DNA of 64,000 bases from Terriglobia bacterium (GCA_965263045.1 CBDHGK010000041.1:5894002-5958001); one strand, 5' to 3'; shown: positions 14,061-49,897, numbered from the stretch's first letter. The notes: generated by a model from the letters alone, not told the origin. Made by a program: numbers and translations.

Positions 14061-14142
14061 TCAAACAGACACGGCGAGGCGGCAACTGAAACAGATACAA
14101 CACGAACCGCATACCTGGAAAAAGCGATCTGGGAACGGGAGC

Positions 14143-16167: not shown

Positions 16168-16222
16168 CAGTCAATCCTCCCGTGTCGGAACGCCAGAATC
16201 AATCGAGAGTCAGTGGGCGTTT

Positions 16223-16505
16223 GAGGGATGCTAGCAGCCCGTGGCATAAGTCTCAAGGGCCGCGTTACGGCCAAACGGGGCCGGATTCTAGGAGGCGACG
16301 ACGCTGCAATGCTCATTCATTGCGAGGAGTCGGCGACAACGAAGACGGCCCCGTATCGCCGTAACCCTATGGGCGCAGGGGGGTTCGGGCCACAGGCTTT
16401 GTCCCTCGTCGGTCACGATGAAAAGACATCGTTCCGCTCCTCACTTCGCGCCTGCAACACGAAGACCCCTCCGCGCGGCCCTTGAGACTTATGCCACGGG
16501 CTGCT
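16223..16505. repeat. Perfect 32-bp inverted repeats (16223-16254 and 16474-16505) flanking a 219-bp core
   Basis: AGCAGCCCGTGGCATAAGTCTCAAGGGCCGCG and its exact reverse complement, read directly from the sequence. It lies in the divergent intergenic region between the two PQQ dehydrogenase genes. Confidence 0.85.
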
Positions 16506-16939
16506 GGGGCTAGTTTTGAGCCATGTCAAAGGAATAACTATTCGCAAACGAGAATCTTCGCGGACGGGCTGGAAGAACGGAGACAACGGGTGCAGCAGCG
16601 GCACGCGATCTCTGTTTAGAATTCCGAATCCGGCAATGCGCGCATGAGCGGTCAACGTTTAATAGCGGGCCCTATGTTTTCCATGAGATTCCGCTTCGCG
16701 CGCCGGGTAGAATTGCGTGATCAACCATTTGGACCTGATTCGGAACTCCGATCCAGGTCGCACGTGCTGTGGTCCCGAACTGCACGATCGTTGACTCCAC
16801 AGTAGTGCTCATTTTTCTCTTCCCGTCCCGGAAGCCTATTTGAGTAGAATAGCGGGTGAATTCTAAAAACGTTTCGGTCCAGTCCGGGTCATGGGCCGTC
16901 CCGACCCGAAGAAAAGCGGTCGACCCTTGGGGGATAGAG

Positions 16940-30578: not shown

Positions 30579-31174
30579 CAGCCTGTCTGCTTCTGGGTGT
30601 CGGGACTATCTGACCGCTCCAGTTCCTGGCACAACGCTTTCAACCCACGCCTCAGCAGGCCGGCGACGCTGGCCTTGGTCCGGTTCGTGAACTGAGCGAT
30701 TTCCTCGGGCGACCAGTCTGCCAGATGCCGGAGTTCGACCGCAGTCCGTTGATCTTCAGGGAGGGTTTCCAGCGCCCGGACCAGATGCATCTGTCGTTCG
30801 TGCCGTGCCAGATGCTGGCTCGGCGAGGTCTGGGCCAGGACCCGCATCCGGATCATGCGGACATCGGAATTTTCTATCGTTTCCTGATAGACCGCCTCCA
30901 GCGCCGCGTCGCGTTTCTTACGGAGGAAGTGGCGTTCCTTATCGATCAGCTCGTTTCTGAGAATCTGTCTCAGCCAGGCCATGAACTCTTCCGGTGTCGT
31001 GCCCTTGAACTGTTTCTCCCGTTGATGGGCCCGCAGCATGACACTCTGGACGAGATCCGATGCATCCACCTTGGCCCGCACCGGTCCGGCGCCGGCCAAC
31101 AGCACTCGGGCCAATCCCATCAGGTAGGACCGATACGAATCCAGGGGAAGTGTAGGACTAATATCGGTTGGCAT
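30578..31174 (-). CDS. ECF-type RNA polymerase sigma-70 family factor
   Basis: Sigma region 2 (DLVQSVMLRAHQ) and region 4 (DWSPEEIAQFTNRTKASVAGLLRRGL). Stop overlaps the kinase start. The longer ORF extends to 31309. Confidence 0.7.
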   Translation of the reverse strand: MPTDISPTLPLDSYRSYLMGLARVLLAGAGPVRAKVDASDLVQSVMLRAHQREKQFKGTTPEEFMAWLRQILRNELIDKERHFLRKKRDAALEAVYQETIENSDVRMIRMRVLAQTSPSQHLARHERQMHLVRALETLPEDQRTAVELRHLADWSPEEIAQFTNRTKASVAGLLRRGLKALCQELERSDSPDTQKQTG

Positions 31175-31295
31175 TGCCGGCAACTCTCGGTACAGGGTGA
31201 CAGTTGGTGACCCAAGTGTAACCCAATCCAAAGCTGAGCCCTGACGAACATCACGGGTGGGGACTGGACCGGTGATCGTCACCCGTATACTGTAC

Positions 31296-32711
31296 CTAAC
31301 GCGCACCACGCGTCGCTCCTGGAGGTACCGACAGATCCAGCCCCATTTGTTGGGCGACGATGAGCTGCATCATTTGAGCAAAATCAGTGGATGCCCGGTC
31401 GGTATCGCCAGCCCCGCCCGCACCCCCACCGCCACCCATGACGAGTGTCGGCACCTGACGTTGGGCATAAGCGCTTGCCCAGACCTGCTGTGCCTGTACA
31501 TAGGCGTGCAGTTTTTCCTGCAAGGCCCCGTCGGCCTGGAGAACGAGTCGCTTTCTTTCGGCCTCTCCCTGACCGAGGAGGATTTCTTCCTGCTTTTTCG
31601 CAGCGGCGGCCTGCCGGTCGAGCTCTGCAACCTCGACCCGCTGCCCGGCTTCAACCAGGGCTTGGACTTTTTCAAACTCGGCGACTTCCAGCCGCTGCTG
31701 TGCCTGAACCACCACTCGAATCTTCATCTGCTCTTCCGCGTACCGCTCCCGTGCCACGTCCGCCTTACCTTCCGCCTCGACCATCAGGGCTTCCTGCTCC
31801 GCCTGCTGGGCCTTGGCCATTGCGGTCGCCACCGCCATGAGCGCGGTCTGCTGAGTGCCGATCTGTTCGCGAACTTTCTCTGTGTAGTCAAACTGCTTGA
31901 CCTCGAAGTTCGCGAGCGTAATGCCGAGTCCATCCAGAGGATTTCGCTGATAGATCGGGTCCCCGTTCTCCTGCTTCTTGATTATCTTGAAGGTCTTCGT
32001 CACCTCCTGCCCCGACACCGGATCCACAACCTTTCGGGTTTCCTCCTCCGTTTCGTAGAGTCCGTTCTGGATCTGATCCCACGCCCAGTAGACATAGTCT
32101 GCACGCCTTTCCGAGTACGACTCGCGCGCAGACATCAGATTTGCAGTGAAGCGGAGGGCGTTCCTCACAACGGGGAGGATGAGCTTCTGTTCGAGCTCTG
32201 TGTAGTCGGCGTAGCCGTACTTGGTCACCACGTCGATGGCCTGCCGTTCGGAACTGGGAAGAATAATGCGCAGGGTGCCGGACACATCACAGAGCGAACC
32301 GTCATTGAAGCGCACTTCGATGGCCTGGGCCGACCCGCTCTCGTCGCTCACAAAGAAGAAGGTCTCCGCTTTCGGCCAGGTCACGATGTTGCTGAATAGC
32401 TGCAGCCACATTCCCGGCATCAGCTTGGCATCCATCTTGCCGCTGACGACCATCTGCCTAACCTGGTAGGAGTCCTGACTGACGGTCTCAACAATCCCAT
32501 AGCCCAGTACGGTCAGCATTCCCAGGATCGACCCCACGGCAGCAAACTGCTTGAATGACAGCAATAATGCGCCTGTCGAGCTTATCCGGGAGCTGAGACG
32601 CGTCGCTTTCAAGCAAGCGCCAAGGAAGGCCATTGCGGCGTTCTTCGCATTTTCTGCACTGCGTTCCCGTTCTGGCCTTGGTTTCGGTTCGTCCAATAGA
32701 CCCATGATCAA
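31296..32711 (-). CDS. SPFH/Band-7 (flotillin-like) domain protein
   Basis: SPFH domain, then a long A/E/Q-rich coiled coil and a glycine-rich tail. Confidence 0.75.
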   Translation of the reverse strand: MIMGLLDEPKPRPERERSAENAKNAAMAFLGACLKATRLSSRISSTGALLLSFKQFAAVGSILGMLTVLGYGIVETVSQDSYQVRQMVVSGKMDAKLMPGMWLQLFSNIVTWPKAETFFFVSDESGSAQAIEVRFNDGSLCDVSGTLRIILPSSERQAIDVVTKYGYADYTELEQKLILPVVRNALRFTANLMSARESYSERRADYVYWAWDQIQNGLYETEEETRKVVDPVSGQEVTKTFKIIKKQENGDPIYQRNPLDGLGITLANFEVKQFDYTEKVREQIGTQQTALMAVATAMAKAQQAEQEALMVEAEGKADVARERYAEEQMKIRVVVQAQQRLEVAEFEKVQALVEAGQRVEVAELDRQAAAAKKQEEILLGQGEAERKRLVLQADGALQEKLHAYVQAQQVWASAYAQRQVPTLVMGGGGGAGGAGDTDRASTDFAQMMQLIVAQQMGLDLSVPPGATRGAR

Positions 32712-33179: not shown

Positions 33180-34532
33180 TCACTCGCCGATGGCGATCAG
33201 GTTCTGTCGGGTGCGGATATACCATTTTCCGTCGACCAGCGCCGGTGAGGCCAACACAGGCTCTCCGATGTCATTCACGCGTAGTATTTCGAAGTTCCTG
33301 CCGGCGTTGAGCACAAAGGTCTCGCCGTTGTCGTTGGTGAAAAACACCTTGCCGTCCACGGCAACGGGTGAGGCTGAAAAGCCCTCCCTCCGGGCAACTC
33401 CGAGCCGTCCCTGCCAGAGGCTATCCCCCGTTCTCGCATCGAAGGAAGTGGCGATGCTGGCCATGTCGTTGACGATGTAAAGCTGGTCCGCGTAGAGAAT
33501 CGGAGACGGAACGAAAGGAGAGCCCCTGGGGCTCGACCACACCACATGGCTGGCTGTGACGTCGCCCGTGCCGCCGGGACGAATCGCCATCGTCGGACCG
33601 GCGCGACCCGAGGAACAAAAAAGCATCCCGTAGCCGACGACGGGGGTGGGGATCACTTCGAACGTATTGCCGTCGCACCACCAGAGTTCCTCTCCGGATT
33701 CGGGATCATAAGCTTGGACCCGGCGCTGGCTGTGGACGATGATTTCGTCATGACCGTCCACGTGGATGGCGATCGGCGAACCCCACCCGACGCTGGCTCG
33801 CCGCGCGGTCCGCCACAGCATGTCGCCTGTCCGGGTGTCGAATGCGGCAACGAACGAACCGGCGGAGTGATCCTGAAAAATGATGAGGCGGTCTTTGTAG
33901 ACCAGGGGTGATCCGGCCGTGCCGTGATAGTTGCTGATCTGGCCGATATCCTGAGTCCAGATCAGTGCGCCGTCCATACTGAACGCCATCAGTCCGCGGG
34001 CGCCGAAAGAGACATACACCCGTTCACCGTCGGTCGTCGGCGTCGCGGAGGCGTGACCATTCTTCTGATGCAGCCGTTCCCGGCTCCCGTCGGGAGCGAA
34101 GCCCTCCCACAGCATCATCCCGTCGGATCTCCGGTAGGCCAGAAGCGACAGCCGCTGGCCGCCGTCATAGGACGTCGTCAGGAAAATCCGGTCATCCCAC
34201 ACGATGGGCGACGAGTTCCCGCTCCCCGGGACGGACATTCTCCACAGTACGTTTTCAGTTTCCGACCAGGTGTCGGGATAGCCGCTGCCGGGAACCAGCC
34301 CCTGGCCCGAAGGACCGCGCCAGCGCGGCCAGTATTCGGCGCCCTCGCCTTCGACGGGAATCATTTGAATTCCGGATTCCCCTTCGGGTCGGGCGGGTTC
34401 GTTGATTCCGGCCTGGGGGACTGCTTCGACCCCACGGGGTCTGCCCCCCAGCGCCACCAGCCCCAGCAGGGCTGCGATTGCTGCACCGATCGCCAGGAAT
34501 GTCTTTCTGTCGGTGGTCCTGTTGTTCTTCAT
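33180..34532 (-). CDS. PQQ-like beta-propeller repeat protein (BamB-like fold), secreted
   Basis: Signal peptide. WPRWRGPSGQG motif and repeated propeller blades. Paralogue of 43424..44737. Overlaps the permease stop. Confidence 0.65.
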   Translation of the reverse strand: MKNNRTTDRKTFLAIGAAIAALLGLVALGGRPRGVEAVPQAGINEPARPEGESGIQMIPVEGEGAEYWPRWRGPSGQGLVPGSGYPDTWSETENVLWRMSVPGSGNSSPIVWDDRIFLTTSYDGGQRLSLLAYRRSDGMMLWEGFAPDGSRERLHQKNGHASATPTTDGERVYVSFGARGLMAFSMDGALIWTQDIGQISNYHGTAGSPLVYKDRLIIFQDHSAGSFVAAFDTRTGDMLWRTARRASVGWGSPIAIHVDGHDEIIVHSQRRVQAYDPESGEELWWCDGNTFEVIPTPVVGYGMLFCSSGRAGPTMAIRPGGTGDVTASHVVWSSPRGSPFVPSPILYADQLYIVNDMASIATSFDARTGDSLWQGRLGVARREGFSASPVAVDGKVFFTNDNGETFVLNAGRNFEILRVNDIGEPVLASPALVDGKWYIRTRQNLIAIGE

Positions 34533-34545
34533 CGGATACCTCAAC

Positions 34546-37500
34546 TCATTCTTCCCGAAGCGCCGGCAACAAGGGTGACCGGAAGGCCGCAACGGTCGCA
34601 GATAGCGATGCTGCCAATCCGACGGCCAGCACCCCGCCTAGGAGTCCAAGGACCAGTGTGCCGGGAAGTTGCCCCCCTCGATCCCAGATCACGGGTGCGG
34701 TGGCGAGAAAGGCTGAAGCGGCGCCCGTCAGCAGGCCGGCGACCAGCAGCGTCACGCTTTCGGCCATGGACATCAGCAGAAAATCCCGCTGCTGGTAGCC
34801 CAGGGCGCGCATGAGGGCCAGTTCCCGTCGACGCTCCAGGATGTTGCGCAACATCACGGCACCCAGGCCGACGGTTCCAAGCAACAGACCCAGACCGCCG
34901 AGCATCTGAAACGTCGACAGATAGGTGTTCTCGACCTGGTGGAACCGGGCCAGGTAGTCGGCGGTCGGTGTGGCGGACCCTCCGAAATCCAGCAGGGCGT
35001 TTTCGATCGACGCTACCGATGCTCCGACCCGGCCGGGTTCGGTCTCCACCAGCAGGAGACGATAGCCTTCGTGTTCGGGAAACAGGTCCAGAAAATTTTC
35101 CTCCGACATCACGAGCTCGCCCTGGAATATGCTGTCATCCAGAGCCGCCACGAGTCGCAGGCGAATCGATCGGTTTCCTGCCGTGATGACGATCTCATCA
35201 CCGAGTGCCCGATGCAGGACGTAGGTCATGGAGTTTGCGTCTCCAATCACGGGGATCGCACCGTCGGGTTCCTGACGATGGAGGAGCTGCCACGGATTGG
35301 CGCGTTCGGCTTCGGTCGAGGCCAGGGAATCGAGGAAGGCGAAACGGCCCTGTTCGATGAAGGCATTGCTGGGGGCCACAATCCGGGGGTTCGTCGGTTC
35401 GTAAAGGTTCAGACAACTGGCATCATCGCCTCCCCGGACGCGGAATGGCGCTACGCCGACCGAATCGAAGCCGCCCAGTCCGAGCAAGGCCTGGCCTTCG
35501 GTGCCGCTCGGGTCCTGTGAGAGCGGCAGCAGCGACTCGACGCGTACCGTGTACCCGCCCAGTCCCGAATCGGGACCGAGATCTGTAATCGTGTCTCTGC
35601 GGAAAGCGTCGACGGATAACAGGATGAACGTGGCTGAAGCGATCATGCCAATCGCGGTGACGCTTCGCGCCGGTCTGTAGGTGGCGTTTCGAAAACCCAG
35701 CCTTGAAACCGGCCACCAGCCCTGCCCCTGGAGCGCTTGTTGCCCGCCCCCACGAAAGCGGACCAGCAGAAAACACAGGCTGGCCGCCAGCACCGCCATT
35801 CCGCCACCGAAAAAGCCAGCGGCCCGTTCGACGAAACCAAATCCCGCGCCGGCGATGAGGACGGTACCCAGCCCGCTGAGCACAAACAGTCCCACGCGTG
35901 CCAGGCAGTTTCGACTCCGGGTTCCGCCGACGGTTTCATCGGACAGTTGTCCGGCCAGCAGGCGACGTTCGGATACTGTGGCGAGGCCACCGAGGGTCGA
36001 CCAGATGCAGGCCATGGCCGCAACAACACCGCCGGCTGCGCCCCCAGCAAGCGATGTGGCAGAAACATGCAGGCCGACGGCGGTAGTGCCTACCGCATCG
36101 ACCCACCAGGTGCCCAGCGCCGTGACCAGCAGCCACGCGTAGCCCAGCGCACCCACCACGCCGATAATGGCACTCACCGAGGAAAGCACGAGGCCCTCGG
36201 TCAGGAACAGTCCCCGGAGCATGGCGGGGGTAAAGCCGACCGATCGCAGCAACCCGACTTCGGGTCCCCGTCCTTCGACACTCAACTTGAAGAACAACGC
36301 CGCCAGCATGAGTGCCGAAACGACGAGGAAGAAACTGAAGTACACGAAGTACTCGCTGAAGTTCGTGGCGCCGCGCGAAGCTTCAAGACTCACAGATCGC
36401 ACCGAACGGACTTCCAGTCCCACACCTTGCGCATTCAGTGTCGTTCCCAGACGTTCGGCGTAGCTGGCGGCCCTCTCCTCAAACCCGGCAGGGTCTGCCT
36501 CAGCCGGGTTCGAAGTAAAGCGAATAGACGAGATCGAACCGTATCGGGATTGCCAGAGTTCACGGCCGACTTCGAGAGAAACGAAGGCCTTGGGCGTCGT
36601 TCGATAAAGCTCCCAAAACCGTTCATCGATGGGACGGATTCGACCCAAATCGATCGGAAATGGTGGGTCCCAATCGCCCACGGCCGCCGAATCGGTGATG
36701 CCCGGATAGTTTGGAGCCATCGCCCGATCGCCCGTCTCGACGGGAACGACTGCGGCCACTTCGAATTCCGCCGTGCGGGTGACCAACTGCCCGGGGTCCT
36801 CCCAGACGAAGTATTCCATCGACAGGCGGTCACCGGATGAAACCCCCAGGTCGTTTGCGGCCCAGTCGGTGAGGACAACCGGGGCGACGTCGGACCTTGC
36901 GGTCGGATTTGCCGCCGGAAGGAGCGTTCCAAGGTCAGTCGCGGTCACGAGTGAATACGGAATTTCACCTCGAGCGTTTCCCAGGCTGTTGACGAGGTAG
37001 GTGAATATTGGCCGGGCTTCCAGGTTGAGGGCCGTCGCAGCTTCAAGAGCGATCTGTTCTTTCTGATCGTCGATCAACCCTCCGGAGCCTTCGAGGATCA
37101 TCGCCCCGGCCGGCTCCATCAGTCTGAGGTTCAAACCCTGGTCACCCAATTCAGCTTCACTTTGAACGATGTTCTTGAGTGCCGCCGTAGCGATATCTTC
37201 GTCTGTACTGCCATCTCTGTTTTCGGAACTTGTGGACACAAGCAGCAGGTTGACGCGTTCCCCAAGATCGAGGTCCGCCTGGACCCGGTCCATCGGAAGA
37301 AAGACGGCATACACCTCCCCCTGAGTCGCGTCGAGAGAAAACTCGCCGAGTGCTTCGCGCCTGACCACAGCCGCGACATTCGCCCGGATGGTGCGGCCCA
37401 CGTCCTCCCTGTTTCCGTGGATCGATTCGAGTGGGATCTCCGACGGTCGCTGCACCCGAACCAGGATCGTATCGCCGGGTCCGGCATCGATCGCTTCGGC

Positions 37501-37938
37501 CAGGGCCGGGCTCAGGAGCGCCTCACGGCCCTCGGGACCAGTGATCTCGTCGACGCCGTGAAACCGCCAGAACCCGTCATCAACACCGTAGACGCGCACC
37601 TGGTTCGCACGGCCGTCTCCGGTTTGTGTCGTGACGAGACCTTCGGCCAGGATGACGGGTGAGACATCGTTGAAGTTGTCCTCGAAATCGGGATGGGAAA
37701 GCAGATCTGCGGCCAGCGTCTCCCGGAAGAAGTCGGTGGACATCACGATCTGATCCGTATTCCCAATCCGCTGGAGAACGAGGTCCCGGAGGCTGCCGCG
37801 GACGGAGTCGCCGACGAGCAGGGCGCCGGAGAGGACGGCGACGGCTGTTGCGATTCCCAGAACCACAGCGATGTTCGTCCGCCAGTAGAACATCAGGCTT
37901 TGAACAATAAGTCGTCTGCGTGTAATCGGTTTAGACAT
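34546..37938 (-). CDS. ABC transporter permease with two FtsX-like modules (MacB/LolE-like), 1130 aa
   Basis: Two sets of four TM helices, each preceded by a large periplasmic domain. Adjacent to the ABC ATPase gene. Confidence 0.8.
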   Translation of the reverse strand: MSKPITRRRLIVQSLMFYWRTNIAVVLGIATAVAVLSGALLVGDSVRGSLRDLVLQRIGNTDQIVMSTDFFRETLAADLLSHPDFEDNFNDVSPVILAEGLVTTQTGDGRANQVRVYGVDDGFWRFHGVDEITGPEGREALLSPALAEAIDAGPGDTILVRVQRPSEIPLESIHGNREDVGRTIRANVAAVVRREALGEFSLDATQGEVYAVFLPMDRVQADLDLGERVNLLLVSTSSENRDGSTDEDIATAALKNIVQSEAELGDQGLNLRLMEPAGAMILEGSGGLIDDQKEQIALEAATALNLEARPIFTYLVNSLGNARGEIPYSLVTATDLGTLLPAANPTARSDVAPVVLTDWAANDLGVSSGDRLSMEYFVWEDPGQLVTRTAEFEVAAVVPVETGDRAMAPNYPGITDSAAVGDWDPPFPIDLGRIRPIDERFWELYRTTPKAFVSLEVGRELWQSRYGSISSIRFTSNPAEADPAGFEERAASYAERLGTTLNAQGVGLEVRSVRSVSLEASRGATNFSEYFVYFSFFLVVSALMLAALFFKLSVEGRGPEVGLLRSVGFTPAMLRGLFLTEGLVLSSVSAIIGVVGALGYAWLLVTALGTWWVDAVGTTAVGLHVSATSLAGGAAGGVVAAMACIWSTLGGLATVSERRLLAGQLSDETVGGTRSRNCLARVGLFVLSGLGTVLIAGAGFGFVERAAGFFGGGMAVLAASLCFLLVRFRGGGQQALQGQGWWPVSRLGFRNATYRPARSVTAIGMIASATFILLSVDAFRRDTITDLGPDSGLGGYTVRVESLLPLSQDPSGTEGQALLGLGGFDSVGVAPFRVRGGDDASCLNLYEPTNPRIVAPSNAFIEQGRFAFLDSLASTEAERANPWQLLHRQEPDGAIPVIGDANSMTYVLHRALGDEIVITAGNRSIRLRLVAALDDSIFQGELVMSEENFLDLFPEHEGYRLLLVETEPGRVGASVASIENALLDFGGSATPTADYLARFHQVENTYLSTFQMLGGLGLLLGTVGLGAVMLRNILERRRELALMRALGYQQRDFLLMSMAESVTLLVAGLLTGAASAFLATAPVIWDRGGQLPGTLVLGLLGGVLAVGLAASLSATVAAFRSPLLPALREE

Positions 37939-38010
37939 GGTGGCCCGTGTGCCTGTGGAGTCGTTGTTGCCGACGGATTGATAAGTGCATCTTACGTACC
38001 TCTTGGCTAC

Positions 38011-38697
38011 CTATGATTCAACCCGACCGAGCCGCCCTTCTGCAAGTTCAAACCGTATCGGAAACTGTGCAGCAAAACGGGCACTGTGCGTCACCGCGAT
38101 CAGGATGTTCTGTTGGGCCCGGTGCAGTTCAAGCAGCAGCGACGCGACAGTCTCCGCCGTTGCTGCGTCGAGGTTGCCGGTGGGTTCGTCACACAACACC
38201 AGGCGGGGTTGCCGGATTAACGCACGGGCGATGGCCACACGCTGCTTCTCCCCACCCGACAACTGCCCGGGCCGGTGGTCGATCCGGTCTTCCAGGCCGA
38301 CCTGATCGACCAGGGAACGCGCATAGGAGCCAGGGTCTGGAGGCGTTTCGCTCAATGGCCCATGCCGCGCGAGAGTCGGCACCAGGACGTTCTCGAGGAC
38401 GGAGCACTGGGGCAGCAGACAGTGGTCCTGGAAAACGAAGCCGATCCGGGAATTGCGGAAAGCCGCCTGTTCGGAACGACTCATGGCAAACAAGTCCTGT
38501 CCGTCCAGGCTTACCGTACCCGCCGACGGTGGCTCCAGACCTCCAAGCACGTAAAGGAGCGAACTCTTGCCGCTGCCCGATGGTCCCATGATCGCCGCGG
38601 CTTCGCCGGGTGCGAGGCAGAGGTTCACATCGGACCATACGACGAGGGGACCTCGTGGGGTCGGAAACTCCTTGTTCAGATGTGAGACTTCGAGCAA
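38011..38697 (-). CDS. ABC transporter ATP-binding protein (LolD/MacB type)
   Basis: Walker A GPSGSGKSS, signature LSGGEKQRVAIARAL, Walker B LVLCDEPT. Confidence 0.85.
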   Translation of the reverse strand: MLEVSHLNKEFPTPRGPLVVWSDVNLCLAPGEAAAIMGPSGSGKSSLLYVLGGLEPPSAGTVSLDGQDLFAMSRSEQAAFRNSRIGFVFQDHCLLPQCSVLENVLVPTLARHGPLSETPPDPGSYARSLVDQVGLEDRIDHRPGQLSGGEKQRVAIARALIRQPRLVLCDEPTGNLDAATAETVASLLLELHRAQQNILIAVTHSARFAAQFPIRFELAEGRLGRVES

Positions 38698-38757
38698 TGG
38701 TCCCTCTGAAATTCCTCGCCGGGCCGGGTACCGGAGAAATTTCTTTACCGGGAAGCC

Positions 38758-40101
38758 TTATCCGCCCAGCGGAGCACCCGCAGGGTGCAGGGTGCCCGCT
38801 CCAGACCCGTTGTTCAACACTGAGTCATAGAGTGCAACCAACCGGTTCGCCGAGCCCCGCACGGAATAGTGTGCGTGGACGCCCCGCAGTCCCTGTCGGC
38901 CGAAGGTATCCCGAAGTTCCCGATCGTTCCACAGTTGCCACAGACCCTCCGCCAGGCTGTCCGCATCGTCGGCTTCGACCAGCAATCCACCTCCGGTCTG
39001 TTCGACGATTTCCGTGAAGGCGCCCCGGCGGGGTTGAACAACCGGCACGCCGTTGGCCATGGCCTCGAGCAGGAACAGGCCTTTCGGCTCATCATAGGTT
39101 GCCGGGACTGAAAGGACGTCAAGTTCCTGGAGAAACGCAAGTTTTCCGTCGCGGTCCACGACACCCCGGTAGGAAAACTCGTTCGCGTAGCCGGCCCCGG
39201 CAAGGGTCTCTCGAACCTCGCTCATGTATTCGGCGTGCGCCGGTGCAGTGTAGCCTGCGACCTTAAGCCGTACCGAAGCATCCCCTGCCCGTTGCCTGAA
39301 CCGGATGTAGGCTTCGGCCAGGATATGCAAACCCTTTTCCGGTGCAACCCGCGCGAAATATCCGACGCGAAAATCAGCCTTCCTTTTCCGGGATGGGCGG
39401 CTTTCGGGATAACCCGCAAGGTTGATACCGAGAGGCACGACTCCGATGCGTTCCTCAGGGATTTCAAGGTACTCCGTCATGAAGCGGCGGCAGTACTCGC
39501 TGACGGCGACGAACCGGTCCACCGTTGAGATCTGTGCCCGGATCAGATCGAGTGCCTGTTCGCGATAGGGAGGCCGCAATCCGTCAATGAAGAGTTCTTC
39601 TCCCTGCAGCGTGCAACAGACAGGCCGATCGAATTTCTCGCGCAGCGGTTTGGCCAGCGCAATCAGCAGCGAGTTGGGCAGATTGATGATATCGGGCGTG
39701 GGCTGATGACCGATCCAGTCGGCGAGTTTCTCGAATTCCTTGCGCAGGGCGCTGTGTTCGCCTTCGAGCATGGAAATTGTGAGATCACCCAACAGTTGAG
39801 GGTCGTTCGAGACCGCGCGTCCCGCAACATGGTCGATTACCCAGGGGGAGTCCCACAGCCGGTCCAGGAATCGGGGAGTTTTCCGGAAAAACGGGAAATA
39901 CTGCTGCAGATAAACGCTGATACCCCCGAACAGGACATGTGGGCGGCTGGCGTTGGGTTCGTCCGTCCGTGTGGGCGTGTAGACCGGTACGAGAGTGCAG
40001 TCGTGCCCAAGCGATAGTAGTTCCCGTGCCAGTGCGTTGTCGCGGGCGCAACTCCCGCAATACATTCCCGCCGCGCCGGCTGTGATCGATAAAATCCGCA
40101 T
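38758..40101 (-). CDS. GT4-family glycosyltransferase
   Basis: GT-B fold with the EAMANGVPVV block. The N-terminus (AGMYCGSCARDN) is unusual. Confidence 0.8.
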   Translation of the reverse strand: MRILSITAGAAGMYCGSCARDNALARELLSLGHDCTLVPVYTPTRTDEPNASRPHVLFGGISVYLQQYFPFFRKTPRFLDRLWDSPWVIDHVAGRAVSNDPQLLGDLTISMLEGEHSALRKEFEKLADWIGHQPTPDIINLPNSLLIALAKPLREKFDRPVCCTLQGEELFIDGLRPPYREQALDLIRAQISTVDRFVAVSEYCRRFMTEYLEIPEERIGVVPLGINLAGYPESRPSRKRKADFRVGYFARVAPEKGLHILAEAYIRFRQRAGDASVRLKVAGYTAPAHAEYMSEVRETLAGAGYANEFSYRGVVDRDGKLAFLQELDVLSVPATYDEPKGLFLLEAMANGVPVVQPRRGAFTEIVEQTGGGLLVEADDADSLAEGLWQLWNDRELRDTFGRQGLRGVHAHYSVRGSANRLVALYDSVLNNGSGAGTLHPAGAPLGG

Positions 40102-40220
40102 TCACTCGGGTTCGTTCGTGGGCGATTGTTCTCGGTTAGAAGTGGATTGCTTGTTGGTTTCTTGATGGTTCGAAGAGATTATCTTATTCCTCTAAACGCC
40201 TCGGCCGCCGCCTCGTTGTT

Positions 40221-40355
40221 CACCCGCACCGTGGGACCGGTGCGGGTAATTTTGGGGGACTGCTTTAACCTTTCCTCAATCCCTATAGGCCCCGCCATCA
40301 CGATGATGGCGGGGGTCGCCGATCGTTCAGACAGGATGTCTGAAAGAACGATCGA
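40221..40355 (-). ncRNA. Copy 1 of a conserved three-hairpin structured element (candidate cis-regulatory leader RNA). Strand is inferred.
   Basis: H1 CCCGCACCG-TGGGAC-CGGTGCGGG, H2 CCCGCCATCA-CGA-TGATGGCGGG, H3 CGATCGTTC...GAACGATCG with an inner hairpin. Lies 119 nt upstream of the GT4 start on the minus strand. Confidence 0.5.
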
Positions 40356-40391
40356 GCGAAATCCCAAATCAGAAACTTTCAACCGAGCCCA

Positions 40392-41819
40392 TTAGCTGAA
40401 CGGCGCGTCCTGAAATGCGCGTGCGCGAAACAGAAAGTCGATGATGTTGCCCTCGTGGGGTTGCAGCCAGTTGAGCTTCGTCGTAGGCACCGGCCCCAGA
40501 TTCAGCCGGTCGATGTTCACGGCGTCGACGAGGCGACGGCGGAATCCGTCGTCGTTGGTGATCGCGCTGCACACCAATGTCGGTCCGATGGCCCGAATCA
40601 TTTCGGCTTCCGGGCATTCTACGACGGAGACAAAGGGGAACATGTATTCCTTGCCCGCGATCGCGGCTTCCGGTGACTCGGCGTGGATCACCGTTGGCAG
40701 CAAATAGTCGGCCAGGCCGGCATCGACCACACGCTTCCCGTCCCGATACATTGCAGTGACATCCCGGACGCCGGGGGCCTCGAGATCGGCGTCGATCGAT
40801 TGTGAAATCGATTCGGCCACTCCGGTGACCGTGAACGCGGCCAGGGCGGCTTCGGGATCTTCCGGGGGACGCGGGTGTATCCGGGCCAGTCGCCCGGCCA
40901 GGGCGTCGGCAATCTCGCCGCCATGCCGGCTCACCCATATCCCGGAAGCGTTGATGCAGCTGCGGCCACTGTTAATTGCCACGCTCTCCACCATCAGGTC
41001 CAGGTGTTGCTCCCAGTCGTCCACCTGGTCGTCACCTATGAGAATCTTCGAAAAGCCGGGTCCATGCGCCTGGACTCGCGGATCACTCCGGTAACGCGCC
41101 ACTGTGGCTTCGCCGCCGAATATGAGGCTGCGGCTCGAAGCGTCCAGCACGGCCGCGCCGACATCGGCTTCGCCCGGATAGATGGAAATGGATTCGGTCG
41201 GAATACCAGCATCAAAGAATGCGTTGGCCATTCGATAGGGCGTCCAGGGTTCCTGGGGGCCGGGCTTGAGGACGAGGCCGATCTGCAACGCGACGATGGG
41301 CAACCACAAGGCGTGGACACCGGGGGAGTTGGACGGCAGAACGACGCTGAGCACGGGGCTCTGGGCCTGGTAGCTGATCGGAACCCCACGCTCCTCGCCG
41401 AAACCCCGGTTAAGGACCTCGAGATCCAGTCCGCGCGTCAGGGATCGGAGGATGGCCGGCATTTCGGAAAGCACGAAGCGGTTCTTTTCCATGTTGGCCC
41501 GGCACATGTTTTCCGGTAACCCGGTGCTGGCCGACTGGGCCCGCACGAACTCCTCAGGCGTCTGCGCGCCATCGCCCATGGGAACCGTGGCGGACATGAA
41601 CGTCTCACCCGCACGCTGCACGCGGTCCATTAGTTCGTTGATCGGAATCGCCCGCAGCGCGTCGCGGGCGGTCTGAGCCTTGCGCATGTCCCGCTGGATC
41701 AGTCCGCTGTTGGCACGCCCGATCCGTGCGACGGGTTCACCGGTTGAGAAATGGACGACTTCGTCCATATCGAGGCTGTCGTAGGGTTGACCCCAGCGCA
41801 GTACGGGAATTGTAATCAT
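40392..41819 (-). CDS. Aldehyde dehydrogenase superfamily protein, LuxC-like acyl-CoA reductase candidate
   Basis: 475 aa. Catalytic Cys context NSGRSCINASG. Sits immediately downstream of the LuxE-like adenylating enzyme (3-nt gap). Confidence 0.65.
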   Translation of the reverse strand: MITIPVLRWGQPYDSLDMDEVVHFSTGEPVARIGRANSGLIQRDMRKAQTARDALRAIPINELMDRVQRAGETFMSATVPMGDGAQTPEEFVRAQSASTGLPENMCRANMEKNRFVLSEMPAILRSLTRGLDLEVLNRGFGEERGVPISYQAQSPVLSVVLPSNSPGVHALWLPIVALQIGLVLKPGPQEPWTPYRMANAFFDAGIPTESISIYPGEADVGAAVLDASSRSLIFGGEATVARYRSDPRVQAHGPGFSKILIGDDQVDDWEQHLDLMVESVAINSGRSCINASGIWVSRHGGEIADALAGRLARIHPRPPEDPEAALAAFTVTGVAESISQSIDADLEAPGVRDVTAMYRDGKRVVDAGLADYLLPTVIHAESPEAAIAGKEYMFPFVSVVECPEAEMIRAIGPTLVCSAITNDDGFRRRLVDAVNIDRLNLGPVPTTKLNWLQPHEGNIIDFLFRARAFQDAPFS

Positions 41820-41821
41820 TC

Positions 41822-42937
41822 TTAATACACGCCCACCGTCGTTGTCGAAACAAGCTCACGAAAGGGCCGGACGCCGCTCACCCCATCCCAGGGATAGAGT
41901 TCGCCGGGGGGCTCGCGCTCGCCCTCGTCCCGTTCAAGGAAACCGGGCATGAAGAACTCCTGCGTCAATGTCGTCACCCGGACCCGGCCGGTCTCGCCAT
42001 ATGCCACAACATGTCCGTCCTCATCGGGATCGACGACCTCGATTACGGCACGGGGTTGGGGGGCATGGTAGGTAATCTTGTAGCCGTTGTGGGGTCCGCT
42101 CGGAGCACTGGGGGCGAGACCCATCATCGTGTTTCCGTAGGTGGGCGTCATGTATGCGCCGTCGAGCAGTTCTTCGTGGGCGAATCGGTTCCACTGAGGT
42201 GTGAATTCAGTGCCCCCAGAGAAGATACCCGTAATGCCTTCCCTGTGAATCGACGTGTCCATCGATTCGAGCCGCAGGGCCAGGGCCTCGAGCAGTTTTG
42301 GCGTCGTGAACAGACAGCGGATGTCGTGCTTGGCCCGGAGGATGGTTACGGCCTGGTCGATCACATGGTTTTTGTACGCGTTCAGGTGATCGGTCCACCC
42401 CTTCTGGATCAGCTTAATCACCCAACGGGGATCCAGATCCACAAGAAAGCAGATGCCCCCACGGTATTGAGCCAGGTGCTCGACCGCCAGGCGCAGCCGG
42501 CGGGGACCGGAAGGGCCGACCATGAGCCAGTTCGACCCTCTCGGGAACGACTCTTCGGGCAGCGTATCGCTGAAGAGTTCGTAGTCGGTCCGAAAGTCCT
42601 CGCAGTTGATGCGCGTCTTGGGGATGCCGGTGGTACCACCTGTTTCGAAAACGAACACGGGTTTGTCGGCCAGGCCGCGGGGCACCCACCGGCTGACCGG
42701 ACCTCCGCGCAACCACTCGTCTTCGAACTCACCAAAACGGCTCAGATCGCTGAAACTTTGAATTTCTGAGAGAGGGTCCCAACCGAGTTCCGTGGCTCGC
42801 TCGAGCCAGAACGGAGTTCCGGTTTTCGGGTCGAAGTGCCAGGCGACAACCTCCCGCACCCAGGCGTCGAGTGCTGTACGGGCAGCTTCCACCCGGGCGG
42901 GCACGGCCTGAGCATTTCTGGAACCGGTGTCTGCCAT
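41822..42937 (-). CDS. Adenylate-forming enzyme, LuxE-like acyl-protein synthetase / PaaK-like ligase family
   Basis: FETGGTTGIPK AMP-binding P-loop. 371 aa from the MADTGSR... start, which matches LuxE/PaaK size. The longer ORF extends to 43021. Confidence 0.6.
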   Translation of the reverse strand: MADTGSRNAQAVPARVEAARTALDAWVREVVAWHFDPKTGTPFWLERATELGWDPLSEIQSFSDLSRFGEFEDEWLRGGPVSRWVPRGLADKPVFVFETGGTTGIPKTRINCEDFRTDYELFSDTLPEESFPRGSNWLMVGPSGPRRLRLAVEHLAQYRGGICFLVDLDPRWVIKLIQKGWTDHLNAYKNHVIDQAVTILRAKHDIRCLFTTPKLLEALALRLESMDTSIHREGITGIFSGGTEFTPQWNRFAHEELLDGAYMTPTYGNTMMGLAPSAPSGPHNGYKITYHAPQPRAVIEVVDPDEDGHVVAYGETGRVRVTTLTQEFFMPGFLERDEGEREPPGELYPWDGVSGVRPFRELVSTTTVGVY

Positions 42938-43108
42938 AGCCGAAACAGTATAGCGAATTGTTGGATGGGTGGGATGAGGGTTTGGGGGGCATGGTGCCGG
43001 GCGTTGGAGATGGTAGTGCATCGGTTCTAGATTGCAGGTGATATCCGAATGAATCCATCAACTTATTACCCTGACGCCTCAGCTCCGCCGCTTTAATATG
43101 AAAGCCGT

Positions 43109-43271
43109 CCACCCGCACCGTGGGACCGGTGCGGGTTCTATTGGGAGGGAACCAGGAATTCCGTCGTTCCTTATAGGTCTTGCCATCATGATGATGGCGA
43201 GGGTCGCTGGTCGTTCGGACCACGCGTGGCACGTGTGCCACGCGACAAAGATGGTCATCCGAAAGAACGAC
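43109..43271 (-). ncRNA. Copy 2 of the conserved three-hairpin structured element
   Basis: H1 is identical (27 nt). H2 is CTTGCCATCA-TGA-TGATGGCGAG, with compensatory changes relative to copy 1. H3 has a conserved outer stem and a different, larger inner hairpin. Lies 87 nt upstream of the LuxE-like ORF. Confidence 0.5.
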
Positions 43272-43423
43272 CGAGCGATTCCCTTCTATTCTATACGGCT
43301 GAGCAAATACCAACTGAGGCACGATCTTCCCTTTGGACAGGTTGTCGAGATGAATCCGGGTTCATTTATACTGCCCCTAAGCGACAGAAGCAGAGGAATT
43401 TGATGCAACCTTCAAAAAGTTGA

Positions 43424-44737
43424 ATGGCGATTCTGTGCCTGGTCCTGACGATGGCTCTGGCAGTGTCCGCTATTGCTCAATCGCAGGCAGACGCAGAACG
43501 TTACTGGGGGCAGTGGCGGGGACCCATGGCAACCGGGGTGTCGGAAACGGCCAATCCGCCGGTCCAATGGAGTGAGACGGAGAACATTCGCTGGAAAGTG
43601 GAGATTCCAGGCCGTGGCAGCAGCTCACCCGTTATCTGGGGCGATCGGGTATTCGTGACATCGGCTGTTCCCGTGGGCGTGGATGGCGACGCGGCGCACG
43701 AGACGCGGGGTGGTGTGGAGCCTCGCGAGGCCCATCGATTTGTCGTTCTGGCGCTCGACCGCAGCGACGGCAGCGTCGTCTGGGAAAGGACCCTCCGGGA
43801 ACAGGTTCCCCATGAAGCGGGGCACTTTCGAAACTCCAGCTGGGCATCCAGTTCTCCCGTCACCGACGGCGAGCACCTGTTCGTCTATTTTGAGTCTTTC
43901 GGTCTCTATGCCCTCGATCTGGACGGAAACCTGCTTTGGGAGAAAGACTTCGGTGACAAAGGCCAGCGGAACCAGTTCGGTGAGGGGAGCACACCGGCGT
44001 TGTACGGCAATCGCCTGGTCATTGTCTGGGACCATCAGGGAGGCCAGTCCTTTGTCCTCGCGGTCGACAAACACACGGGAGCGGAAATCTGGCGTGTCGG
44101 TCGCGATGAAATCGACTCCTGGGCCACGCCCCTTGTCGTGGACCACGGAGGAGGGCCACAGGTGATCGTCCCGGGAAGGAACAGCCTGCTCGGCTACGAT
44201 CTCAGTGACGGCAGTATTGTCTGGGAGAGTCCCGGTTTGACGATGAACCCGATTCCGTCACCCGTTGTCGAGGACGGGCTGCTGATCGCCATGAGCGGTT
44301 TTCGGGGCAACAACCTCAAGGCCATCCGGCTCGACGATGCCCGCGGTGATATCAGTGAGACCGGAGCGATTGTCTGGGAGTTGAATCGGGATACGCCGTA
44401 CGTACCCTCGCCGCTGCTCTATGACGGCATCGTCTACTTCCTGAAAACGAATTCGGGGATTCTGTTCGCGTACAACGCAGCAACGGGCGAACCGTTGTTC
44501 GAGAATCAGCGCCTTCAGGGCCTGCCCAACGTATTTTCGTCTCCGGTAGGCGCACAGGGCCGCGTGTACCTGACCGGCCGTGAAGGGAGCACGCTCGTTA
44601 TTCGTCGGGGTACCGATTTCGAAGTGATGGCGATGAACACTCTCGACGACGGTTTTGACGCGTCTCCGGCGCTGGTCGACAATGAAATATACCTACGCGG
44701 AACCCGCTACCTCTACAGCATTGGTGAGGAATTCTGA
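43424..44737 (+). CDS. PQQ-like beta-propeller repeat protein (BamB-like fold), secreted
   Basis: Signal peptide, WGQWRGPMATG motif and repeated blades. Paralogue of 33180..34532. Confidence 0.65.
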   Translation: MAILCLVLTMALAVSAIAQSQADAERYWGQWRGPMATGVSETANPPVQWSETENIRWKVEIPGRGSSSPVIWGDRVFVTSAVPVGVDGDAAHETRGGVEPREAHRFVVLALDRSDGSVVWERTLREQVPHEAGHFRNSSWASSSPVTDGEHLFVYFESFGLYALDLDGNLLWEKDFGDKGQRNQFGEGSTPALYGNRLVIVWDHQGGQSFVLAVDKHTGAEIWRVGRDEIDSWATPLVVDHGGGPQVIVPGRNSLLGYDLSDGSIVWESPGLTMNPIPSPVVEDGLLIAMSGFRGNNLKAIRLDDARGDISETGAIVWELNRDTPYVPSPLLYDGIVYFLKTNSGILFAYNAATGEPLFENQRLQGLPNVFSSPVGAQGRVYLTGREGSTLVIRRGTDFEVMAMNTLDDGFDASPALVDNEIYLRGTRYLYSIGEEF

Positions 44738-48838: not shown

Positions 48839-49897
48839 TCATTCCGCGGCAGATTCCACCGAAGCGAGATCCCTCGATACCTGCTGTAGGATCTTCAGTG
48901 AACGATGGCACGCAATGGGATCGAAAATTCGAACCGTTGTGATCAACTCGTCGGCACCGGTCTGCTCCAAGAAGTGGCCGACGCTCTGTCGCAGTGAATC
49001 GGGGGAACCCACGAACGCATATCGAAGCCTCCTCTCCACCGCCAGTTTCTCCTGCGGCGTCCAGTAGGCCTCGATATCGTCGACGGGCGGACCGAAGGGC
49101 TCCCGAAGACCACGCATCATATCTGTCGACGCCGCCTGTTGCGACGTGAACAGCCACCGGGCCTCGTCGTCCGTATCGGCCGCCACGACATTCATTCCGA
49201 CCATCGCATAGGGTTGGTCGAGATCATCCGATGGGCGAAAGCCTTTCCGGTAGGCTTCCAGCGCGTGCATCAGATAGTCGGGCGCAAAGTGAGATGCGAA
49301 GGCATAGGGAAGCCCGAGTTGGGCGGCCAATTGAGCGCTGAACAGACTCGATCCGAGCAACCAGACTGGAACCGACAACCCGGTGCCGGGAACGGCACGC
49401 ACACTCTGTTGGGGCAGGGCCGCACGGAAATACGACTGCAGCTCCAACACATCTCGCGGAAAATCGTTGTCGGAACCTGAGAGAGTGCGTCGTAAGGCGT
49501 GTGCTGTCCGACGGTCCGTACCCGGTGCACGACCCAGTGCCAGATCGATGCGGCCGGGGTAAAGGGATTCGAGAGTGCCGAAATGCTCGGCGATTACGAG
49601 GGGCGCGTGATTGGGCAGCATCACTCCGCCCGCGCCCACGCGAATCTTTTCGGTTGCACCTGCGACGTGCCCGATCAGGACGCTGGTCGCCGCGCTCCCG
49701 ATCCCGCTCATGTTGTGATGTTCAGCGAGCCAGTATCGTTTGTAGTCCAGCTTTTCCGCCAGTTGTGCCTGCTCGCGCATCAGGTGGAAAGCGTGGCGGG
49801 CATCGCCGCCCGCCCGGATCGGGGCCAGGTCCAGTATCGAAATCGGAGTCACAATCGCTAATTCACAGCCCGCGGGGCCTTTTGACGCGGGAGGCAA
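48839..49897 (-). CDS. LLM-class (luciferase-like) flavin-dependent oxidoreductase
   Basis: TIM-barrel LLM family sequence (ISILDLAPI..., [18 protein letters not shown]). Confidence 0.75.

Follow-up and report, generated by a model that had tools for sequence, protein, structure and literature searches.

The window, by which we mean the whole 64,000-nt stretch of DNA that was analysed, contains on its minus strand a gene for an EhpF-like adenylating enzyme (LIG, here the ligase; positions 41822 to 42937, 371 aa), followed by a gene for an EhpG-like reductase of the aldehyde dehydrogenase (ALDH) fold (here the dehydrogenase; 40392 to 41819, 475 aa). The ligase reading frame is open up to 43021 (41822 to 43021, 399 aa), and an internal ATG at 42937 gives the 371-aa product; homologues of the ligase are 369 to 371 aa long and begin at the position of this internal ATG. 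The first-pass annotation had placed the two genes 3 nt apart; the tight spacing was confirmed, although the distance from stop codon to ATG is 2 nt (TAA GA ATG). Downstream on the same strand are genes for a GT4-family glycosyltransferase (38758 to 40101, 447 aa; Pfam Glycos_transf_1 and Glyco_transf_4), an ABC ATPase of the LolD/YbbA/FtsE type (38011 to 38697, 228 aa; Pfam ABC_tran), a Type VII ABC permease (34546 to 37938, 1130 aa; Pfam MacB_PCD and two FtsX domains), and a beta-propeller of the BamB/PQQ_2 type (PQQa; 33180 to 34592; Pfam PQQ_2, 89 bits). A paralogous PQQ_2 propeller (PQQb; 43424 to 44737; 100 bits), about 35% identical to PQQa, is encoded divergently on the plus strand. 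These genes and their sizes, the co-oriented downstream block, the divergent paralogue, and the motifs FETGGTTGIPK in the ligase and SGRSCINASG in the dehydrogenase were all found as annotated at first pass. In addition, two copies of a structured repeat lie on the minus strand: copy 1 (40183 to 40359; 198 bits in the covariance-model (CM) search) in the 290-nt spacer between the dehydrogenase and GT4 genes, and copy 2 (43062 to 43278; 172 bits) with its 3' end about 125 nt before the ligase start codon.

EhpF was the sole strong solved relative of the ligase, and the match covered nearly the full length. Compared with the PDB, the ligase matched EhpF (3hgu/3l2k) with an E value of 8e-43 over residues 51 to 388 of the 399-aa reading frame, and a profile of the ligase family retrieved EhpF with an E value of 5e-45, about 340 of 369 residues being covered. 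An EhpF homologue encoded in the ehp cluster of an E. coli plasmid was matched at 35% identity with an E value of 2e-57. In Pfam at E ≤ 10, only AMP-binding was found (28 bits, under its cut-off), with the profile aligned as far as position 374 of 384, and AMP-binding_C was not matched; the ligase has the ANL N-terminal domain only. In NCBIfam at E ≤ 0.01, the only match was a DVU_1553-family ligase, and neither the PaaK equivalog nor the C-terminal subdomain was found. Streptomyces homologues of the ligase carry the NCBI name "arylcarboxylate reductase". Furthermore, natural fusions occur elsewhere in which an EhpF-like domain is joined to a class-III aminotransferase or to a Zn alcohol dehydrogenase, both of which are enzyme types that use aldehydes. 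The ligase is encoded in at least 586 genomic stretches of a one-genome-per-species collection.

The only Pfam match of the dehydrogenase at E ≤ 10 was Aldedh (67 bits, over its cut-off), and BLASTP aligned its residues 27 to 473 with the EhpG homologue (E 4e-27). Cys288, which lies in SGRSC, aligns with the catalytic Cys of ALDH and is invariant in the family, and when residues were mapped onto KauB and compared throughout the family, Asn164 was seen to be retained. The position of the general-base Glu is occupied by His252 in the window dehydrogenase, whereas it is Gln in EhpG and Gln, Tyr, or Leu among EhpG-like proteins. The whole family conserves Cys and Asn and lacks the general-base Glu; judged by these residues, the dehydrogenase is predicted to be non-hydrolysing and looks like a reductase. 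An AF2 model of the dehydrogenase made from 19 close homologues had a pLDDT of 58.8, a low confidence, and provided no structural support.

Both proteins are thus homologous over their full length to EhpF and EhpG, which belong to the D-alanylgriseoluteic acid phenazine cluster of Pantoea agglomerans. The ehp cluster of the E. coli plasmid has the same gene order, ligase followed by ALDH, and the same 2-nt gap as the window pair. As in the window, the EhpF-type ligase lacks the ANL C-terminal domain, and its ALDH partner keeps Cys and Asn without the general-base Glu. The pairs differ in that the identity is just 35% for the ligase and 23% for the dehydrogenase, and in that EhpF and EhpG have a phenazine-type aromatic context, whereas the window pair has GT4 and Type VII ABC neighbours. 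Another difference is the very tight conservation of the Vicinamibacterial clade, in which the ligase is approximately 70 to 88% identical across the class and is more conserved than the dehydrogenase partner and the ABC ATPase. Comparable pairs were found in Burkholderia, Streptomyces, and Halalkalicoccus. When five EhpF-like genes with an ALDH gene nearby were examined, four were in chorismate-derived aromatic clusters and one was in a haloarchaeal transporter context; no chorismate or aromatic biosynthesis genes were found near the window pair, which sets it apart from all characterised contexts.

The same two-protein logic is described for GriC and GriD of the grixazone pathway of Streptomyces griseus, to which the window pair was likened by the published description and by NCBI product names. 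Their substrate is 3-amino-4-hydroxybenzoate (3,4-AHBA), which GriC, an AMP-binding protein, converts to the acyl-AMP and the ALDH-like GriD then reduces to the aldehyde (PMC10179220). The matches to the EhpF/EhpG family and the missing Glu, together with the lack of a match to the LuxE or LuxC models, indicate that the pair is best read as a two-component carboxylate reductase of the EhpF/EhpG type; it is a known kind of system and not a new one. By analogy, the pair probably acts on a carboxylic acid, reducing it to the aldehyde. The 371-aa ANL enzyme without a C-terminal domain would adenylate the acid to form an acyl-AMP, and the acyl group would then be handed to Cys288 of the ALDH-fold partner. 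Because this partner is without the hydrolytic Glu, we propose that the thioester stays unhydrolysed, and it may then be reduced to the aldehyde. The homology, the state of the key residues, and the order of the genes were computed here, and the proposed chemistry follows the literature on GriC/GriD and the EhpF family.

The first-pass annotation had assigned the pair to LuxE and LuxC and had suggested a fatty-acid or lipid substrate. According to this explanation, the ligase would acylate itself on a C-terminal Cys as LuxE does and pass a fatty acyl group to the dehydrogenase, which would act as LuxC and supply a lipid or glycolipid pathway with fatty aldehyde. Indeed, the logic is shared with the LuxE/LuxC system of luminous bacteria (7XC6), in which an acid and ATP give an acyl intermediate, then a thioester on the reductase Cys, and finally the aldehyde. 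The superfamilies also agree (ANL for the one protein, and for the other the ALDH fold with a catalytic, acyl-carrying Cys, here Cys288), LuxE likewise has no C-terminal subdomain, the sizes of 371 and 475 aa fit, and the genes are tightly adjacent. In addition, the EhpG homologue of the E. coli plasmid gave a faint match to NCBIfam LuxC (21 bits; cut-off 750), and the ABC ATPase and permease weakly matched DevA and DevC, which are glycolipid-exporter families. However, neither Pfam LuxC (PF05893) nor Pfam LuxE (PF04443) was matched by the window proteins at E ≤ 10, NCBIfam LuxC (NF052251) was not matched by the dehydrogenase at E ≤ 0.01, and the LuxE chain of 7XC6 was not retrieved by the ligase family profile at E ≤ 10. 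LuxE is marked by a short C-terminal motif, TRxxKGCxLS, with the acyl-accepting Cys364 (PMC9157457). This motif is missing from the ligase, whose C-terminus (...VSGVRPFRELVSTTTVGVY) contains no Cys. Moreover, a LuxD-like thioesterase and LuxAB are lacking. The four aromatic clusters and the one haloarchaeal transporter context of the EhpF-like genes lend no support to a fatty-acid or lipid substrate. Membership in the LuxE/LuxC families is consequently very unlikely, and what stands of the earlier assignment is the tight coupling of an adenylating enzyme with an ALDH-fold reductase in one gene pair, a mechanistic analogue of the LuxE/LuxC acid reductase. A luciferase-like gene about 6 kb from the pair belongs to the MsnO8 family and not to LuxA/B; it is not conserved beside the pair, being missing there in the closest relative (L001), and was rejected as an analogue of LuxAB.

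It is also quite improbable that the two genes form an ordinary catabolic pair, that is, a PaaK-type aryl-CoA ligase and an NAD+-dependent aldehyde dehydrogenase, each working in its usual direction. This explanation agrees with the JGI names of the homologues ("PaaK-like adenylate-forming protein" and [quoted passage not shown]) and with the Pfam Aldedh match, which exceeds its cut-off. However, the ligase is without the ANL C-terminal domain, which performs the thioester-forming half-reaction, and the dehydrogenase is without the general-base Glu required for thioester hydrolysis. In addition to the lack of a PaaK match to the window ligase, the EhpF homologue of the E. coli plasmid scored only about 18 to 19 bits against the PaaK models, whose cut-offs are 646 to 700. 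The obligate adjacency with the 2-nt gap, which is kept from Enterobacterales to Acidobacteriota and archaea, also argues against such a catabolic pair.

As to the genes downstream of the reductase pair, the nearest solved relatives of the GT4 protein were PimA, MshA, and BshA, a generic match. In NCBIfam, the ABC ATPase matched LolD (231 bits) and YbbA (188 bits; cut-off 336), with all matches under the equivalog cut-offs. The permease is an internally duplicated FtsX-type protein with 10 helices predicted from its hydropathy profile, and periplasmic domains are predicted between helices 1 and 2 (about 490 aa) and between helices 7 and 8 (about 230 aa). The presence of MacB_PCD and FtsX domains places the permease in the Type VII ABC superfamily at large. 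MacB has its ATPase fused to a four-helix permease, forms a homodimer, and is accompanied by an adaptor gene (MacA/HlyD). The exporter had been described at first pass as MacB-like; in topology the permease is instead of the YbbP type, with 10 predicted helices and a separate ATPase, and the HlyD/MacA-type adaptor family was matched by none of the seven cluster products of the window. The reported topology of YbbP likewise comprises 10 helices, periplasmic domains between TM1 and TM2 and between TM7 and TM8, and a separate ATPase (PMC12646458).

The window system thus resembles YbbAP-TesA of E. coli in having a separate ATPase, a single 10-helix permease chain with two periplasmic domains and a pair of linking helices, a periplasmic protein encoded next door, and no adaptor gene. 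As for differences, the permease did not match YbbP significantly in sequence: a phmmer search of the PDB (E ≤ 0.01) found YtrF and 5xu1 only, the YbbAP entries 9GE6-8 being presumably included in the searched copy. Furthermore, the first periplasmic domain of the window permease (about 490 aa) is far larger, and the neighbour is a beta-propeller, whereas it is the TesA hydrolase in E. coli; the propeller may be a partner of the permease. The likely start of PQQa is the ATG at 34532, which is 13 nt past the permease stop codon and is followed by a hydrophobic N-terminal segment; the N-terminus of PQQb has a signal-peptide-like segment.

Subsequently, the gene order was compared in 82 relatives, mostly Vicinamibacteria, using tblastn with the seven cluster proteins of the window. 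The dehydrogenase gene followed the ligase gene in 78 of 79 loci, and the ABC ATPase or permease was encoded downstream in 58 of 66. The GT4 gene was downstream of the pair in 29 of the 66 loci and upstream in two (L065 and L078), in which it has been shifted but is still within the cluster. The intergenic gaps within the cluster are often 2 to 30 nt in the relatives. A propeller gene came after the permease gene in at least nine other loci; the PQQb orthologue had the same position in L001 (88% identity) and was 1 to 7 kb away in several other loci. The co-oriented block of GT4, ABC ATPase, and double-FtsX permease, for which synteny in related genomes had been proposed as a check, is therefore conserved in relatives. 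In L001, a 4.5-kb toxin-antitoxin/IS island parts the dehydrogenase gene from the GT4 gene, and in four loci beyond the main clade or on its edge (one Pirellulales, one Terriglobia, and two unclassified Acidobacteriota; L080 to L083) the pair stands alone. These results suggest that the reductase pair and the GT4/ABC half can work apart, and the putative link of the pair to the GT4 and ABC genes rests on synteny within one class.

The two structured elements are direct repeats of approximately 180 to 215 nt on either side of the 2.8-kb pair. A 26-nt core is identical in both copies (0 chance matches expected), the copies are 75 to 80% identical with a subtype specific to each position, and copy 2 carries an extra 31-nt hairpin. 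The intergenic regions that hold them (290 and 393 nt, longer than the elements themselves) gave folding z values of -4.9 and -4.3 against shuffled sequences. In a CM search of 83 sources, the element was found only in the window, L001, and L002. L002 has an orthologue of copy 1 at the same position and no upstream copy, and L001 has only an orthologue of copy 2, with a related, shorter insertion. Three metagenome copies adjoin dapF-like, YgfZ-like/DnaJ-like, and M48-peptidase-like genes.

We give little credence to the proposal, made at first pass as leader-RNA control, that the elements are riboswitch-like cis-regulatory leaders co-regulating the ligase-dehydrogenase and GT4-ABC units. Both copies are on the sense strand with their 3' ends about 80 to 125 nt before a start codon, the fold is stable and shows some compensatory as well as G-U changes, and each position is orthologously kept in one close relative. 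However, about 78 other loci that have this cluster lack the element, and in many of them only 2 to 30 nt separate the dehydrogenase and GT4 genes. The other copies are in spacers of convergent genes or on the 3' side of unrelated genes, with one upstream of the dapF-like gene. No terminator and no obvious expression platform was present, and a promoter and terminator scan of the spacers gave matches no more frequent than in shuffled sequence. Rfam gave nothing at gathering thresholds for the whole window, and at E ≤ 10 over positions 39900 to 43600 only a chance-level c-di-GMP-II match inside the ligase gene. A search for another conserved leader in front of the ligase gene in other clades yielded nothing beyond similarities that upstream coding genes explain.

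The other suggestion, in which a mobile two-gene cassette, with the direct repeats as its ends, was inserted into a GT4-ABC operon that already existed, is hardly credible: although the repeats flank precisely the 2.8-kb pair, the pair keeps its position relative to the ABC/permease genes in 58 of 66 loci without any repeats, the GC content is even throughout the region, no integrase or transposase is present, the relatives have single copies, and the divergence of the two copies and their position-specific subtypes indicate that they are old. The elements, as compared among these sequences, are lineage-restricted, dispersed, structured intergenic repeats and would lie apart from the conserved system; the two copies may still have some regulatory influence locally.

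Taken together, we favour with moderate confidence the combined reading that the pair is an EhpF/EhpG-type ATP- and NAD(P)H-dependent reductase, that it belongs to a Vicinamibacterial cluster with a YbbAP-like Type VII ABC system, often together with GT4 and a secreted propeller, and that the dispersed repeat is outside this system. The aldehyde or a derived alcohol may be glycosylated, handled by the ABC machine at the cell envelope, or both. A bolder proposal, which we regard as speculative and rather unlikely, is that in Vicinamibacteria the reductase is coupled to the YbbAP-like ABC system, the periplasmic propeller, and GT4 in an undescribed envelope system, in which a (glyco)conjugate derived from the aldehyde or an alcohol would be made and then extracted or presented at the inner membrane. 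If true, it would make this carboxylate reductase the first to serve the cell envelope in a housekeeping role and not secondary metabolism.

Vicinamibacteria rank with the most abundant bacteria of soils, and only very few members are in culture; the five- to six-gene cluster is conserved in many of their species. The EhpF/EhpG (GriC/GriD-like) assignment offers a concrete hypothesis for the bench and corrects a likely mis-annotation as LuxCE or as PaaK and aldehyde dehydrogenase. As small acid-to-aldehyde biocatalysts that work without a carrier protein, two-component carboxylate reductases have practical interest, and the large, tightly conserved clade is a ready enzyme source.

A PADLOC scan for defence relevance, run after a borderline "GT4-conflict" Pfam match, gave nothing relevant. 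Clustering of the neighbouring ORFs, in which the high GC content of the DNA let shadow ORFs intrude, served only to reveal a DUF4399 insert and a divergent transporter-like gene.

The genes claimed in the first-pass annotation were all found in the window at their places. The ORF of the ligase, the adenylating enzyme of the pair, lies on the minus strand (41822-43021) and encodes 399 aa, or 371 aa when translation starts at the ATG at 42937. Because thousands of homologues are 369-371 aa long, this internal ATG was regarded as the real start. After a gap of 2 nt (TAA GA ATG), which had been reported as 3 nt, the ORF of the aldehyde dehydrogenase (ALDH)-like protein follows (40392-41819, minus strand, 475 aa). 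The motifs FETGGTTGIPK and SGRSCINASG were both found in the window proteins. Also on the minus strand are the genes of a GT4 glycosyltransferase (38758-40101), an ABC ATPase (38011-38697), a permease of 1130 aa that matched the MacB periplasmic-core domain once and FtsX twice (34546-37938), and a PQQ_2/BamB-type propeller (33180-34592). The gene of a paralogous propeller (43424-44737) is divergent to the cluster.

The pair had been assigned to the LuxE/LuxC families, and this assignment failed in the profile searches. With Pfam at E<=10, the LuxE profile did not match the ligase, whose sole match was a sub-threshold AMP-binding domain, and the LuxC profile did not match the ALDH-like protein, to which Aldedh alone was matched (67 bits). 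The LuxC model of NCBIfam was likewise not matched by the ALDH-like protein at E<=0.01, and LuxE of entry 7XC6 was not retrieved by the ligase search of solved structures even at E<=10. The one strong solved relative of the ligase was EhpF (3hgu/3l2k), aligned over nearly its full length with an E of 8e-43, or 5e-45 when the family profile of the ligase was used. An E. coli plasmid bears an ehp-type phenazine cluster in which 2 nt separate the gene of an EhpF homologue from the downstream gene of an "aldehyde dehydrogenase family protein" (EhpG). Both window proteins aligned with these products end-to-end, the ligase at 35% identity (E 2e-57) and the ALDH-like protein at 23% identity (E 4e-27). 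The same order, with an ALDH-family gene directly after an EhpF-like gene, was observed in Burkholderia, one Streptomyces plasmid, and the archaeon Halalkalicoccus; on a second Streptomyces plasmid, the ALDH-family gene is about 2 kb from the EhpF-like gene and on the opposite strand. Streptomyces homologues of the ligase carry the NCBI name "arylcarboxylate reductase". The EhpF-like family is small at 50% clustering (308 representatives at E<=1e-30). Judged by sequence homology, the pair belongs to the EhpF/EhpG family, and by analogy it would add a new member to the two-component carboxylate reductases of this family.

The earlier idea of an acid-reductase pair held as a functional analogy: the pair would resemble LuxE/LuxC in its way of working, but its family is EhpF/EhpG. 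The proposed lipid substrate was not upheld. A luciferase-like monooxygenase gene 6 kb from the pair (48839-49897, minus strand) was considered and rejected as a Lux component, being of the MsnO8 family of LLM oxidoreductases (418 bits) with just 25 and 21 bits for the LuxA and LuxB models; it was not present in the corresponding region of L001, the closest relative.

The 371-aa ligase has no ANL C-terminal domain. LuxE also lacks this domain and instead has a short C-terminal motif, TRxxKGCxLS, the cysteine of which is acylated (PMC9157457). No cysteine is present in the tail of the window ligase (…VSGVRPFRELVSTTTVGVY), and a LuxE-type acyl-protein intermediate is thus unlikely. In the ALDH-like protein, the catalytic Cys is retained as Cys288 and the oxyanion Asn as Asn164. 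The Glu that acts as general base in hydrolytic aldehyde dehydrogenases (LELGGKS) is replaced by His252 in the window protein and by Gln, Tyr, or Leu in EhpG-like proteins. With this Glu missing, a thioester on Cys288 would escape hydrolysis, which fits a reductase working in the acid-to-aldehyde direction. A comparable two-protein logic, compared here by its published description, is that of GriC/GriD (PMC10179220, citing Suzuki et al. 2007), in which an AMP-binding protein makes the acyl-AMP and the partner protein then forms the aldehyde from it by reduction. Furthermore, an exhaustive library search revealed natural fusions (proteins P0326 and P0380) of the EhpF-like domain, one with a class-III aminotransferase and one with a zinc alcohol dehydrogenase (824 and 725 aa long, respectively). 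Both fusion partners are aldehyde-consuming, and the fusions suggest acid-to-amine and acid-to-alcohol routes elsewhere.

The ligase family comprises >8000 clusters (90% identity) at about 75-88% identity, and the ligase is encoded in at least 586 genomic stretches of a one-genome-per-species collection. Nearly all of the 80 listed loci were labelled Acidobacteriota, class Vicinamibacteria; one, at 69%, was from Pirellulales. On this basis, the window was assigned to a Vicinamibacterales-like genome. Four loci (L014, L038, L067, and L068) carry MAG titles of Bifidobacteriaceae, Bifidobacterium, or Acidimicrobiia together with a Vicinamibacteria-type cluster (ligase identity 76-79%); these bins are probably mislabelled or contaminated.

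To examine synteny, the seven window proteins were compared by tblastn with 82 non-redundant loci, and the neighbourhood was found to be conserved in relatives. The ALDH gene followed the ligase gene in 78 of the 79 testable loci. Of 66 loci, 58 had the ABC ATPase or permease gene downstream on the same strand, and the GT4 gene was downstream in 29 of 66 and upstream in 2 more. Intergenic gaps in related loci are often 2-30 nt, which is operon-like. Two Marinacidobacterales genomes have the GT4 gene relocated upstream of the ligase gene yet still in the cluster, which speaks for functional coupling over inherited gene order. One sub-clade is devoid of GT4, and in many of its loci an additional 0.5-1.4 kb of sequence sets the ligase gene apart from the ALDH gene; 10 of these loci carry a small secreted-protein ORF there, and the one scanned matched DUF4399 (L032, 9186-9707, with a lipoprotein-like signal). 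In four loci (one Pirellulales, one Terriglobia, and two unclassified Acidobacteriota; L080-L083), the pair occurs without the other cluster genes; therefore, the reductase is the autonomous core of the cluster. Across the class (L004-L083), identity was 69-88% for the ligase, 62-90% (mostly 64-75%) for the ALDH, 55-82% for the ABC ATPase, 54-82% for GT4, and 42-77% for the permease. The ligase is thus more conserved than its partners, which is unusual for a presumed secondary-metabolism-type enzyme. The hypothesis on the pair, which is testable, concerns a conserved cluster of an abundant, poorly studied soil lineage rather than a new kind of system.

In about 10 loci (L007, L008, L018, L021, L028, and others), a divergent gene starting 60-150 nt upstream of the ligase gene encodes a multi-pass membrane protein of about 450 aa with the look of an MFS transporter, which could be a putative substrate importer. 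In L001, a 4.5-kb toxin-antitoxin/IS island (12681-16851) parts the ALDH gene from the GT4 gene. It contains an rve-family transposase and three toxin-antitoxin pairs (PemK/MazE, HigB/HTH, and RelB-like) and occupies the position of repeat copy 1 in the window; the ALDH-GT4 spacer appears to be an insertion hot spot.

The ABC ATPase belongs to the LolD/YbbA/FtsE type. For the permease, 10 helices were predicted, with large periplasmic domains between helices 1-2 and 7-8 and a linking helix pair in the middle. The same topology has been reported for E. coli YbbP; no sequence similarity to YbbP itself was detected. None of the seven cluster gene products matched an adaptor-protein family, and the ABC ATPase is encoded separately and not fused to the permease. 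Therefore, the previous label "MacB-like exporter" is right at the superfamily level only. A secreted propeller gene follows the permease gene in the window and in at least 9 other loci, and its product could be the periplasmic partner of the permease. GT4 is generic, its nearest solved relatives being PimA, MshA, and BshA. The association of the pair with a YbbAP-like ABC system is class-wide and has not been described before.

Two structured elements flanking the pair as direct repeats were confirmed on the minus strand, copy 1 at 40183-40359 and copy 2 at 43062-43278. Their 26-nt hairpin core is identical, for which the chance expectation was 0 matches, and both intergenic regions in which they lie fold far better than shuffled controls. 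A covariance model built on the four copies first found detected both window copies of the element, the L001 copy ahead of the ligase gene, and the copy in the ALDH-GT4 spacer of the relatives L002 and L003; by this model, the element was absent from the other ~78 loci. The copies sort into position-specific subtypes, indicating that both sites are old; the element of each site is missing in one relative, where it was lost or never gained. An exact scan of metagenome contigs with the hairpin core yielded three more full-length copies (128-166 bits), all on marine metagenome contigs (L089, 914-1102; L090, 886-1074; L091, 275-485). One precedes a dapF-like gene by 76 nt, one is between convergent YgfZ-like and DnaJ-like genes, and one is 3' of an M48-peptidase-like gene. 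Modular insertions, namely a 31-nt hairpin and a 12-nt TTTCATA..TAAAG block, occur in the family. The consensus from seven copies has 50 pairs, 6 of them with compensatory changes, and several are G-U on the sense strand. Rfam contained no family for the element. From its sequence and occurrence, it thus appears to be a lineage-restricted, dispersed, structured intergenic repeat, probably transcribed within the neighbouring mRNAs, and it may locally affect the stability or polarity of mRNA. Leader-RNA control, which had been proposed for the cluster, was not supported, the element being not specific to it, not found in the ~78 other loci, and placed by unrelated genes elsewhere. That the copies are terminal repeats of an inserted module was refuted by the pair lying at the same place without repeats in 58 of 66 loci and by the uniform GC.

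Just downstream of the cluster (28443-31309, minus strand), a Ser/Thr protein kinase is encoded whose Cache-domain match is weak and below threshold (24.9 bits against a cut-off of 45). Its gene is directly followed by that of an ECF-type sigma factor, and a protein of 471 aa that weakly matches SPFH is also encoded here; these genes were not kept with the cluster in L002. At 51576-53573 on the plus strand, a 665-aa ORF fuses an N-terminal Rieske [2Fe-2S] domain with all three domains (N, M, and C) of a thiamine-pyrophosphate enzyme, an architecture that is uncommon.
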